DNA of 64,000 nucleotides, taken from positions 608,001 through 672,000 of the forward strand of contig JAHPZA010000010.1 in assembly GCA_019058445.1 (NCBI GenBank), in the 5' to 3' direction. Below, piece after piece: positions 5,480 to 17,249 of the stretch. The notes below the pieces were generated by a model that saw only the letters and a list, made by a program, of their open reading frames with translations, had not been told where the DNA came from and made no database searches. Position numbers and translations under genes: made by a program. The stretch's first letter is position 1. Every line of letters starts with the position of its first letter. Origin of the DNA: Promethearchaeota archaeon (lineage in GTDB: Archaea; Asgardarchaeota; Lokiarchaeia; Sigyniarchaeales; SOKP01).

Positions 5480-5737
5480 TTAGCCTATTTCTACATCCAT
5501 TTTCTTACGCTCTTCAAGGAGATCGTCAACTACAGATGGATCGGCTAAGGTTGTGACATTTCCAATATCAGTACCAGATGCGATAGCTTTTAAAATTCGA
5601 CGCATAATTTTACCACTTCTGGTTTTTGGAAGGGCATCTGCAAATTGAACGACATCTGGTTGAAAGACTGGTCCGATCTCTTGTCGAAAATGCATTTTAA
5701 TGTCGTGTTTCAAATCTACAAATTTTTCAATTCTCAT
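5480..5737 (-). pseudogene. acs: Orphan 3' fragment of acetyl-CoA synthetase (C-terminal part with [12 protein letters not shown])
   Basis: The last 66 aa are identical to the C-terminus of the acs gene ending at 13051; the rest of the gene is absent. Confidence 0.85.
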
Positions 5738-5831
5738 AAATATTATTATAACTCTGTTTATTTTGTTTTAATCCATAATTTTTTATAACCCTAACTCAAT
5801 ATATTTAAATTAAAGATTATTAAGCAAAACT

Positions 5832-13050: not shown

Positions 13051-15185
13051 TTAGCCTATTTCAACATCCATCTTCTTACGCTCTTCAAGGAGATCGTCAA
13101 CTACAGATGGATCGGCTAAGGTTGTGACATTTCCAATATCAGTTCCAGATGCGATAGCTTTTAAAATTCGACGCATGATTTTACCGCTTCTGGTTTTTGG
13201 GAGAGCATCGGCAAATTGAACGACATCAGGTTGAAATACTGGTCCTATTTCTTTTCGAACATGATTTTTAATATCTCTCTTCAACTCAACTGATTTATCA
13301 ACGCCTTGCATTAAAGTAACAAAACTCCAAATGGCTTGACCCTTAATTTTGTGGGGAAAAGGAGCTACTGCAGCTTCAGCTACCTTCGGATGACTCACTA
13401 TTGCTGATTCGACTTCCATGGTTCCAATTCGGTGGCCTGAAACCTTAATCACATCATCTAATCTGCCTAAAATCCAATAATAACCATCTTCGTCTCGACG
13501 TGCTCCATCTCCAGTATAGTAACATCCCGGATACCTTTCGAGATAAGTCGATTTGAATCGTTCGGTGTCACCCCACACATCTCTTAACATACCAGGCCAT
13601 GGTTGAGCCATACAAAAATATCCTCCTTCATGGGCTTCAGTTACCTCGTCTCCTTCTAAATCAAAAATTATCGGTTTGATTCCTAAGAATGGTAAGCAAC
13701 ATGAACCTGGTTTTGTGGGTGTAGCGGTCGCTATCGGCGTCATTATAAAGCCCCCCGTTTCTGTTAGCTAATGAGTGCGAATTGCAATCATCTTTTGCCA
13801 GTATGTATCAACGATGGGGCATTTTTCCTTTCCTACAATTCTGTGATACCACGTCCATGCCTCAGGGTTTTTCCCAAACTACGCATAAGTTGCATAATTT
13901 ATTGGTTCCCCTACAGTACCTAAGACGCGGATAGAGCTGAGATCATGTTTATTCACAGGCTCATCACCATATCGCATTAACGCTCTTATTGCCGTCGGAG
14001 CTGTATAAAACTGTGTAACCTTGTGTCGCTCAACAATATCCCAAAAGCGGTCCACATTTCCCCCATATGAAGAAATTTCAATTTTTCCTAAAGAATTAGG
14101 ATTTTTAATTTGTATGACTGGGTATGTAGGCACGCTTTCAAACATAAGTGTTGTAGCGCCATTTGCTAATGGTCCATATACAATATAACTATGTCCGGTA
14201 ATCCAACCTATATTTCAGCTAAGCTAAGCGAGTTGCTTTAACTTTCTGCTGTACAATACCAGACATCGCCATCCTTATAATTAAACACCACTCTATGTGT
14301 AAATGAAGTGTAAAGGATATAACCTGCTGTGGTATGTTTCACCCCTTTAGGTTTACCAGTAGTTCCGCTTGTATATAGGATGAATAAGGTGTCTTCAGAA
14401 TCCATTTCTTCACAATCACAATCCTCATTCATACCATCAATGAAATCATGATACCAGATATCCTTGTTGGTGCTTGGAACTTCATTTCCCGTACGCTTTA
14501 CTATTATAACATGCTCTATGGTAGGTACGTCATCGATAATTTGAGCGACATCTGCCATTTTTGGATAGGTTTTTCCCGCTCTAAAGGTCTCATCGCTAGT
14601 AAACAACAATCTCGAATCAGAATCCTCAATCCTATCTTTTACTGCTTCTTTTGAAAATCCGCCAAATACAATAGAATGAATTATTCCAAGTCGAGCGCAG
14701 GCTAACATAATAATTGCCAATTCAGGCAACATAGGGAGCCAAATGGTGACCCTATCTCCTTTTTTGAGCCCAAATTTTTTCATGCCGTTGGCAACTTTAC
14801 ACACTTCTTTTTTTAGCTCGCTAAATGTGAATTTTCTCACTTCTCCGGGTTCATCAGCCTCCCAGATTAGAGCGGTATGGTCGCCTTTCCCTTTTTTGAT
14901 ATGGCGATCGATACAATTATAGCATACGTTTAATTTTCCGCCAACAAACCATTTTCCGGGAAATAAGTCCGTTTTTTCCCAAACTTTATCGTAAGGTTTG
15001 AACCAGTCTAAAGATTTAGCTTGCTCGCCCCAAAACCCCTCCATATCATCAATACTTTGCTGCCACAGTTTTTTATATTCTTCGAAAGACATCCCGGTCT
15101 TTGCATAATCAGGATTTAAATTAACCGGATTGAAAACACGTGTTTCTGTAAGAATCGATTCCATTTTTTTATCTTCTTCTGACAT
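13051..15185 (-). CDS. acs: Acetyl-CoA synthetase (AMP-forming), five exons and four putative BHB introns; 660 aa after splicing
   Basis: Exons 15185-14246, 14213-14118, 14057-13901, 13870-13794 and 13763-13051 total 1983 nt (661 codons with stop). The joined protein has [53 protein letters not shown] and PKTRSGK. Confidence 0.92.
13764..13793 (-). other. Putative BHB intron 4 of acs (30 nt; in-frame TAG)
   Basis: CU-GGCA-AA^A-GAUGAUUGC-AAUUC-GCACUCAUU-AGCU-AA^C-AG, with 8 of 9 inner-stem pairs. Removal restores DTYWQTETGG. Confidence 0.83.
13871..13900 (-). other. Putative BHB intron 3 of acs (30 nt; in-frame TAG)
   Basis: ACCA-AU^A-AAUUAUGCA-ACUUA-UGCGUAGUU-UGGG-AA^A, with a 9-bp inner stem. 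Removal restores GEPINPEAW. Confidence 0.85.
14058..14117 (-). other. Putative BHB intron 2 of acs (60 nt; in frame, no stop)
   Basis: CUACAU-ACCC-AG^U-CAUA...UCCUAA-UUCU-UUAGGA...UAUG-GGGG-AA^A-UGUGG. Removal converts [28 protein letters not shown] to YPDVDRFW. Confidence 0.75.
14214..14245 (-). other. Putative BHB intron 1 of acs (32 nt; frameshifting, with in-frame TAA)
   Basis: UGUA-CAGC-AG^A-AAGUUAAAGC-AACUC-GCUUAGCUUA-GCUG-AA^A-UAUA. Central helix CAGC/GCUG pairs 4/4. Removal restores the Asp codon of CTAD-IGW. Confidence 0.85.
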
Positions 15186-15341: not shown

Positions 15342-17249
15342 ATGGAAAGAATTGATTTATTAGATAAAGACTGGAGAGAGAAATGGAAAAATAAGGAAAT
15401 AACACCCAAAGAGGCAATAGGGAAGATTATTCCTGGAAATCGGGTATTTATTGATACTGGGTGTAGTGAACCGCAGGCATTAACAGATGAATTAATCAAA
15501 CAATCTGAAAAATTGATAGATACTGAGTTAATTCACTTTCTCACAATTTATCCTCAAAAATATTTCAAAGATAAGGCAGAAGATTTGTTTAGGCATAATG
15601 CGTTTTTTATAGGGAAAGCTCTCAGAGAGGAAATAAATAAAGGACAAGCAGATTATACACCTATAATAGCCAGTGAAATTCCTTCATTATTTCTTTCAGG
15701 TCGTAAATATTGTGATGTTGCCTTAATTCAAGTAACTCCCCCGGATCGATATGGTTTTTGCTCATTTGGAGTTAATGTTGATGTTGCTAAGCCAATTGCC
15801 CAATCAGCGTACATTACTATTGCCGAGATAAATCCCCAAATGCCCAGAACATTGGGAAATAGCTTCATCCACATGAAAGAAATTGATCATTTTGTGTATA
15901 ACGACACACCTCTCATAGAATTCCAGTTTAAGGAAAAGAATGAGATTATTGAGAGAATAGGAAAAAATGTAGCAGGTATCATTCAAAATAAATCAACAAT
16001 CCATATTGGTAATGGATATATTCCGAATGCTTGTTTAAATTACTTATTTGAAAAAAGAGATCTTGGAATGCACTCTCATTTTATAACTGATAATATCATA
16101 CATTTAATAGAAAACACTGTTTTAACATGTAGGAAAAAGAACTTCCATCCTGAAAAGATTATTACTAGCTACGCGTTAGGAACAAAAAAGCTATTTGATT
16201 TTATCAATAATAATCCTTACATTGAGTTTTATCCAACAGATTACATCTGCAATCCCCGATATATCGCAATGAATAAAAACATGGTTTCAATAAATCAAGC
16301 ATTACAAATCGATTTAACAGGCCAAGTAAATACTTCAACAAAAGGATACAAATTTCATACTGGAATTGGAGATACTGTGGATTTTATGAGAGGGGCAGCG
16401 CTTTCTAAGGGTGGAAAGCCAATAATTGTTTTACCTTCAACAAGAAAAGAGGGAACGGAATCAACCATAGTTCCCCATTTAGACGAGGGAGCGGGAATAA
16501 TTCTTTCTCGAGCAGATATTCACTATGTTGTAACCGAATGGGGAGTAGCATATCTTCATGGAAGGACAATTCGAGAAAGAGCCTTAGAATTAATATCTAT
16601 TGCCCATCCTGATTTTAGACAGTCTTTATTAGATCAAGCGAAAATATTGAACTACATTTACTCTGATCAATTATTACCCTGCGATGAGGAAGGAAATATT
16701 TGTATTTATCCAAAACACTATGAGACCTATTTTGTGACTAGAGCTGAAGAAAAAGTTATTGTACGCCCGGTAAGGACAACTGACGAACCTCTCTTGAAAA
16801 AATTGTATTATTCTTTAGATGAAAGAGATAGATATTTGAGGTTCTTTGAGGTGAAAAAGGAATTTACACATTCAAAAACACAACATGAGGTTAATATTGA
16901 TTATGAGAATATCTTTTCAATTGGAGCTTTTGTAGGAGATATTACAAATCAGGAAATGGTGGGAAACGCATCTTATTACTATAATCCCCGAAATAATATG
17001 GCAGAATACAGCTTTTTAGTTCGAGAAGATTATAGAGGTAAAGGAGTGGGCTCTTTTCTCTATCACCACTTAATCATCATAGCAAAAGAAAGGGGAATAA
17101 AAGGATTTTATGGAACTATTCACATCCAAAATAAACAGACGGTACAGATCATAAGGAAAGGAGGGTACACAAAAATTACACCTCCAGAAGCAGGAGAAAA
17201 AGAATTATTTTATGAAGTTTTTTTTGATAAAGACAATTCAAATGAATAA
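15342..17249 (+). CDS. Acetyl-CoA hydrolase/CoA-transferase fused to a C-terminal GNAT acetyltransferase
   Basis: DVALIQVTPPD, IDLTGQV, DFMRGAALSKGG and VVTEWGVAYLHG in the N-terminal part; C-terminal VREDYRGKGVG GNAT motif A. Divergent from acs. Confidence 0.88.
   Translation: MERIDLLDKDWREKWKNKEITPKEAIGKIIPGNRVFIDTGCSEPQALTDELIKQSEKLIDTELIHFLTIYPQKYFKDKAEDLFRHNAFFIGKALREEINKGQADYTPIIASEIPSLFLSGRKYCDVALIQVTPPDRYGFCSFGVNVDVAKPIAQSAYITIAEINPQMPRTLGNSFIHMKEIDHFVYNDTPLIEFQFKEKNEIIERIGKNVAGIIQNKSTIHIGNGYIPNACLNYLFEKRDLGMHSHFITDNIIHLIENTVLTCRKKNFHPEKIITSYALGTKKLFDFINNNPYIEFYPTDYICNPRYIAMNKNMVSINQALQIDLTGQVNTSTKGYKFHTGIGDTVDFMRGAALSKGGKPIIVLPSTRKEGTESTIVPHLDEGAGIILSRADIHYVVTEWGVAYLHGRTIRERALELISIAHPDFRQSLLDQAKILNYIYSDQLLPCDEEGNICIYPKHYETYFVTRAEEKVIVRPVRTTDEPLLKKLYYSLDERDRYLRFFEVKKEFTHSKTQHEVNIDYENIFSIGAFVGDITNQEMVGNASYYYNPRNNMAEYSFLVREDYRGKGVGSFLYHHLIIIAKERGIKGFYGTIHIQNKQTVQIIRKGGYTKITPPEAGEKELFYEVFFDKDNSNE

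Follow-up and report, generated by a model that had tools for sequence, protein, structure and literature searches.

The ACS gene and its four inserts

This analysis concerns a gene for acetyl-CoA synthetase (ACS, AMP-forming) that lies on the minus strand of a 64-kb window of archaeal DNA (the whole stretch that was analysed) and is broken by four short inserts. The window corresponds to C10:608001-672000 of the source genome, referred to here as G000, which comprises 4.6 Mb in 10 contigs with a G+C content of ~31%. The gene occupies window positions 15185-13051 and, if left unspliced, reads as three open reading frames (ORFs) of 315, 88, and 230 aa. Its pieces match the Pfam profiles ACAS_N plus AMP-binding (profile positions 6-212), AMP-binding (246-301), and AMP-binding_C.

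A search of 30 related genomes provided ACS orthologues, including an uninterrupted frame of 662 aa in the same-genus genome G002 (locus L009). The limits of the inserts were defined by DNA alignment of 12 orthologues, in which four blocks are present in G000 and missing in G002. Joining the five exons (15185-14246, 14213-14118, 14057-13901, 13870-13794, and 13763-13051, all on the minus strand) gives 1983 nt with one terminal stop, that is, a protein of 660 aa, 625 residues of which (95%) are identical to those of the G002 orthologue. The exons are under strong purifying selection: dN/dS (the ratio of nonsynonymous to synonymous substitution rates) is 0.017 versus G002, synonymous sites are saturated versus most other relatives, and comparison of G000 with the metagenomic relative L071 gave a proportion of nonsynonymous differences (pN) of 0.036 and of synonymous differences (pS) of 0.62. 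Rfam and ARAGORN searches of the 64-kb window gave no matches.

An earlier note on this DNA, made from the sequence alone, had placed a set of related inserts at 13764-14245; on the minus strand, the limits of this span coincide exactly with the 3′ end of insert 4 (13764) and the 5′ end of insert 1 (14245). The note was also right that the inserts share one architecture. Each consists of a single nucleotide, a hairpin, a 4-nt segment pairing with exon nucleotides -6 to -3, and two final nucleotides. This arrangement has the geometry at which the archaeal bulge-helix-bulge (BHB) motif is cut. When cuts are placed after the second nucleotide of each bulge, all four junctions (TAD/IGW, TYPD/VDRF, EPI/NPE, and YWQ/TETGG) are exactly those of the intron-less orthologue. 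In the register used, all four inserts end in AA and three in GAA^A (the caret marks the predicted cut), as had been described.

Insert 1 (14214..14245, minus strand; 32 nt) shifts the frame and forms a nearly canonical BHB, with an outer helix UUGUA/UAUAG, a 3′ bulge AA^A, a central helix CAGC/GCUG (4/4 pairs), and a 5′ bulge AG^A. Its hairpin consists of 7 bp, a 1-nt bulge, and 2 bp, and one extra unpaired A precedes the 4-nt segment; the formula 1+10+5+10+4+2 proposed earlier thus gives the correct length, but the arms are not a clean 10+10. Insert 2 (14058..14117, minus strand; 60 nt) is in frame and has no stop codon. It forms a relaxed BHB with ACCC/GGGG (3/4 pairs), bulges AG^U and AA^A, and a closing stem of 4-5 bp round two small hairpins. 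A reading of insert 2 as two nested 30-nt introns was rejected, as there is no sub-structure to support it.

Insert 3 (13871..13900) and insert 4 (13764..13793), both on the minus strand, are 30 nt long, carry an in-frame TAG, and have the same geometry (1+9+5+9+4+2), as previously noted. Insert 3 has a 9-bp hairpin with a 5-nt loop, a central helix (A)CCA/UGG(G) with 3/4 pairs, bulges AU^A and AA^A, and a displaced outer helix (the relaxed HBh′ form). In insert 4, the 9-position hairpin contains one U.C mismatch and closes on a 5-nt loop, the central helix is GGCA/AGCU (3/4 pairs), the bulges are AA^A and AA^C, and the outer helix has 2 bp. The intron-intron helix h′ is present in all four inserts (9 bp in three of them, 4-5 bp in insert 2), and the exon-exon helix h has 5 bp at insert 1 and 2 bp at insert 4 and is displaced or absent at inserts 2 and 3.

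The fit to the BHB motif was compared with chance by shuffling each insert 20000 times, leaving the exons and the spliced product that must result unchanged. Shuffled sequences reached the observed score 2, 128, 2, and 10 times out of 20000 for inserts 1, 2, 3, and 4, respectively, which corresponds to P = 1.5e-4, 6e-3, 1.5e-4, and 5.5e-4 (Fisher combined P = 4e-10).

Conservation and turnover among relatives

A comparison of insert presence and absence across relatives, which the earlier note had proposed, revealed 0, 1, 2, or 4 inserts per genome. All four are present in G000, inserts 1 and 4 in L071 (metagenome contig Ga0209976_10007828), inserts 3 and 4 in G005, and insert 4 in G003 and G006, while G002, G009, and six other genera have no inserts. 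The inserts are therefore not an assembly artefact, since they are found in independently assembled genomes.

The insert 4 site is filled in G000, G003, G005, G006, and L071, always by 30 nt. Over the five copies, pairing is seen in 89% of cells, versus 24-51% when the partner is slid, and three stem pairs are altered on both sides. The copy in L071 (215-244, minus strand) has TGG where the other copies have TAG, which leaves it open in frame; an unspliced L071 mRNA would encode a 10-residue insertion at this site, and the central helix is weaker there (GGUU). At the insert 3 site, which is also filled in G005, the exon change CCA to CCG is matched by the intron change UGG to CGG, compensatory across the exon-intron helix; three pairs of insert 3 are changed on both sides, including an exon-intron pair.

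Insert 1 is shared with L071 and is missing from the other 11 of the 12 aligned orthologues. Between the two carriers it differs in the upper hairpin only, the outer helix, central helix, and bulges being unchanged, and the 26 exon nucleotides flanking it are also identical, although pS between the two genes is as high as given above. Insert 2 was found in G000 only among 13 orthologues, and a search for its relatives in 40 family genomes returned only AT-rich chance matches inside unrelated coding sequence. Scanning of metagenome contigs for the insert 4 site with a gap of 0-30 nt detected one unspliced DNA contig (L071, a relative) and no spliced form.

The ACS tree has the form (G003,(G000,(G002,L071))) and (G005,(G009,G006)), in which the two outer clades have 100% support and the inner nodes 81/74 and 93/95. 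On the simplest reading of this tree, insert 4 dates from early in the genus and was precisely lost in G002 and G009, insert 1 was gained before the split of G000, G002, and L071 and then lost in G002, and insert 2 was gained on the G000 branch. Under the same reading, the insert 3 site was filled either by an old gain, followed by at least three losses, or by two separate gains. Insert turnover is thus real, with lineage-restricted gains and precise losses. The lack in G002 of both introns expected in its ancestor would fit a replacement of the gene by spliced cDNA.

Probable mini-introns in other genes and the predicted splicing enzymes

At least nine other genes of G000 carry inserts of the same architecture. 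The candidates, including those from structure scans, were confirmed one at a time with Pfam. Eight of these genes have inserts of 30-32 nt, located at C10:684116-684145 (-), C9:775863-775892 (-), C9:6926-6955 (+), C6:396802-396833 (-), C3:396671-396701 (+), C6:1272337-1272367 (+), C9:269043-269072 (-), and C10:5858-5887 (+). In the Prismane/CO dehydrogenase family gene (32 nt), the profile match breaks off at position 457 in exon 1 and resumes at 458 in exon 2. The profile positions are likewise contiguous in BKACE and the Obg-like GTPase (MMR_HSR1), with 31 nt each, and the domain runs across the 30-nt inserts of an EF-2 paralogue (GTP_EFTU), GH38 (GH38N), and SIR2, as does an MCM-type profile across that of the Mg-chelatase-like AAA+ protein (30 nt). 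The flavin reductase insert (30 nt) has weaker support.

The ninth gene, aIF2-gamma, carries 29 nt in the P-loop (GHVDHG/KTT) at G000:C4 ~384838-384866 (-), with a central helix AUGG/CCAU. The same site has inserts of 29, 29, and 32 nt in G008, G012, and G013 and none in 21 other relatives. In G018, the sequence at this site could not be resolved.

All 12 of the introns tabulated obey the rule of 1 nt, hairpin, 4 nt, and 2 nt and have A-rich bulges, mostly AA^A. The suggestion that the 3′ ends suit each exon context also proved correct, in that the 4 nt near the 3′ end pair with the local exon in every one of them (3-4/4 pairs). The size range of 29-32 nt is partly an ascertainment effect, as the scans covered only 20-45 nt with a directly closing hairpin. 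The use of EF-2 as evidence from a single-copy essential gene was dropped, because there is a second EF-2-like gene at 45% identity; the two genes lie at C10:683336-684115 and C9:663790-664566, and only the C10 copy has a mini-intron. A paralogue-based search for split high-scoring segment pairs in G000 gave only eight places, mostly uninformative.

With regard to the processing enzymes, G000 encodes the catalytic subunit of the tRNA splicing endonuclease EndA (PF01974 at C9:770595-770843, 68 bits) and the ligase RtcB (PF01139 at C1:114713-116020, 574 bits). [quoted passage not shown] As for tRNA genes, ARAGORN detected only 23 in the 4.6 Mb of G000; it called an intron in 19, and the identity of several is doubtful. 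Most tRNA genes of this genome are probably hidden by multiple introns, and the low count agrees with the report that Asgard tRNA genes are heavily interrupted (10.64898/2026.10.13.758758).

Probable splicing, origin, and competing explanations

Taken together, the inserts are probably BHB mini-introns of the ACS pre-mRNA, spliced by EndA and RtcB, with a common shape set by the enzyme. We infer cleavage and ligation as follows. Each insert would fold with its exon flanks, such that the 4 nt just before the last two of the intron form a helix with exon nucleotides -6 to -3. This pairing would put an A-rich bulge of ~3 nt at each boundary, beside the hairpin of the intron itself. EndA would then cut after the second bulge nucleotide on both sides, and RtcB would join the exons to yield the mRNA for the 660-aa enzyme.

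Several observations weigh against this explanation. The central helix is complete (4/4 pairs) in insert 1 only, with inserts 2-4 reaching 3/4, and a properly placed outer helix is missing in inserts 2 and 3. Comparison of the two carriers of insert 1 revealed no compensatory change, and two pairs are broken in one of them. Only a single EndA-domain match was found, by a search that was not aimed at the beta subunit. In a genome-wide screen for BHB structure with ORF restoration, 5235 cases were observed versus 4736 expected, only ~10% above; matched position-shifted controls were nearly as high, looser ORF rules performed worse, and a decoy based on mirror repeats had a higher pass rate than the true pairing rule. 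This census was swamped by same-strand gene boundaries, and the candidates described above were therefore confirmed singly. In addition, folding energy does not set inserts 1 and 2 apart from their shuffles (z = -0.83 and -1.12), and is clearer for insert 4 (z = -1.86) and insert 3 (z = -3.55). Since the BHB score beats the shuffles and the folding energy of inserts 1 and 2 does not, the signal lies in the exact registration of the structure with independently defined boundaries, not in stability.

The earlier note had gone further and regarded the inserts as copies of related, possibly mobile, elements. In such a scenario, insert 1 would have arisen from insert 4 or 3 of the same transcript via reverse splicing or translocation, reverse transcription, and recombination, and the lineage restriction of inserts 1 and 2, as well as the absence of inserts 1 and 4 from G002, as expected if spliced cDNA replaced the gene, would agree with it. 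The proposed copying was not supported by the comparisons of the inserts themselves. Each insert lacks a second copy in the 4.6-Mb G000 genome by blastn. A covariance model built from the insert 4 orthologues and the BHB structure recovered only insert 4 (E = 1.7e-18; next E = 0.13), and with filters off over 31 kb it gave three verified introns 6.7-8.5 bits, which is noise. Against shuffled controls, insert 1 scores highest with inserts 3 and 4 (P = 0.01 and 0.03), whereas insert 3 versus 4 gave P = 0.9 (all P values uncorrected), and the comparison of inserts 1 and 4 weakened to P = 0.11 when stems were shuffled as pairs so that the structure was preserved. The ACS triple ranks 7th of 220 triples, but several intron pairs from unrelated genes score as high as the ACS pairs, and insert 2 has no relative.

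The similarities of detail that had been pointed out stand in part. The hairpin tips of insert 1 (GCAACTCGC) and insert 4 (GCAATTCGC) agree at 8/9 positions, the highest identity of 66 pairs, yet the tip motif GCAAYTCGC occurs in G000 at chance frequency (18 occurrences versus ~17 expected). TTAGCT is indeed common to the ends of inserts 1 and 4, but lies one nucleotide out of step with the structure. Where 3′ ends resemble each other (GCUG/AGCU and GGGG/UGGG), so do the exon sequences with which they pair (CAGC/GGCA and ACCC/ACCA), which accounts for the likeness. Because it is general for the mRNA mini-introns of G000, the common geometry reflects the processing enzyme and not common descent, and a shape that comes from the requirements of the enzyme is by itself no evidence of copying between introns. 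By these comparisons, the four inserts appear to be a class defined by shape, a sequence family among them being not demonstrable; the resemblance of insert 1 to the neighbouring inserts may be a weak hint, which 30 nt cannot settle. The preprint on Asgard tRNA introns also saw no general arrival route (10.64898/2026.10.13.758758). A mobile family is therefore unlikely to account for the four inserts. It also seems doubtful, for the route of gain more generally, that BHB mini-introns multiply within or between Asgard mRNAs, with insert 1 as a translocated descendant, derived from an older intron in this transcript, whose new site was chosen by the 4-nt exon pairing and with whole-gene loss, as in G002, via spliced cDNA. 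If it were true, the protein-coding genes of the prokaryotes most closely related to eukaryotes would harbour a mobile intron system.

One further occurrence of the tip GCAATTCGC, the same 9-mer as in insert 4, lies at G000:C1:131046 (+), at the 5′ edge of a tRNA-Lys gene (C1:131053-131128; ARAGORN, no intron). The hairpin with this tip is an extra one and seems to fall within the tRNA.

The inserts carry stops or shift the frame, and a truncated copy of the ACS C-terminus lies 8 kb off, as might be expected of a pseudogene disrupted by hairpin-forming DNA elements that were never removed, similar to miniature inverted-repeat transposable elements (MITEs) or repetitive extragenic palindromic elements. 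Conserved, structured inserts together with strong purifying selection on the exons make a pseudogene very unlikely: the dN/dS value is low, the spliced frame is clean, and insert 4 persists in five lineages with saturated synonymous sites. Searching G000 with the C-terminal ACS exon revealed no other close ACS paralogue, and aIF2-gamma, for which only one candidate gene was found, carries the same kind of insert. Elements of the MITE or insertion sequence type are multicopy, with terminal inverted repeats and target-site duplications, whereas the ACS inserts are unique in the genome and their boundaries are defined by exon pairing, not by duplications. Translational bypassing, known from phage T4 gene 60 and the Magnusiomyces mitochondrial byp elements, would have ribosomes skip the inserts. 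It would suit short inserts with a hairpin and early stops, and a possible take-off codon AAU and landing codon AAC, read by one tRNA, are present at insert 3. By reading of the sequence, this is the only insert where such a pair is possible, and no matching take-off and landing codons exist at inserts 1 and 4. Moreover, bypassing does not need a covarying exon-intron helix and does not predict the rule that the 12 introns follow, which makes it an extremely improbable explanation.

Splicing by EndA and RtcB would have partial parallels in known systems. XBP1/HAC1 mRNA splicing in eukaryotes is regulatory, involves one intron per transcript, and proceeds by IRE1 cleavage and RtcB- or Trl1-type ligation. 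It resembles the process predicted for ACS in having a small mRNA intron bounded by stem-loops, a protein endonuclease, and sealing by a tRNA ligase, and differs in the endonuclease and the recognition motif.

The cbf5 pre-mRNA of Crenarchaeota contains a BHB intron (Watanabe 2002; Yoshinari 2006; Yokobori 2009, PMC2738675; references in PMC5829648), and cbf5 is essentially the only archaeal coding sequence for which the searched literature documents protein-spliced introns (PMC2738675, PMC5829648). Both cases share a BHB-type intron inside a protein-coding gene, a substrate of the tRNA splicing endonuclease (predicted for ACS), and gain and loss among related species. Unlike cbf5, which is one crenarchaeal gene with one intron, the present case comprises four in one metabolic gene and others in at least nine further genes, is Asgard-type, and has inserts of a stereotyped length (29-32 nt, within the range favoured by the scans). 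The multi-intron tRNA genes of Asgard archaea (10.64898/2026.10.13.758758) are similar in the motif, the presumed enzymes, the repeated gains where the exon completes the motif, and the lack of a clear arrival route. For Thermoproteales, families of transposed tRNA introns have been proposed as mobile BHB introns landing where a BHB can form (Fujishima 2010, as related in PMC4090602); in that account, such families are recognised by very similar introns at different sites, a similarity that the ACS inserts do not have.

In a literature search, abundant tRNA introns in Asgard archaea were found to be reported, whereas BHB introns in Asgard protein-coding genes were not. The ACS gene is an ordinary metabolic gene with four inserts, and the different numbers among close genomes allow gains and precise losses of introns in protein-coding genes to be compared directly, in a lineage of Asgard type that belongs to the group nearest eukaryotes. 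Gene callers split or miss such interrupted genes. The exon codons beside an intron are constrained by RNA structure, and expression of the interrupted genes would depend on tRNA-splicing enzymes.

Two other features of the window are related to ACS. A lone fragment of 89 aa at 5483-5749 (-), ~8 kb off, is 84% identical to the last 89 ACS residues (AMP-binding_C); fragments resembling the ACS C-terminus are also present in G003. Divergent from ACS, at 15342-17246 (+), is a gene for a fusion protein of 635 aa that joins the N- and C-terminal domains of acetyl-CoA hydrolase/transferase to a GNAT acetyltransferase domain. An acetyltransferase adjoining ACS recalls, by analogy, the Pat-type regulation of ACS by lysine acetylation.

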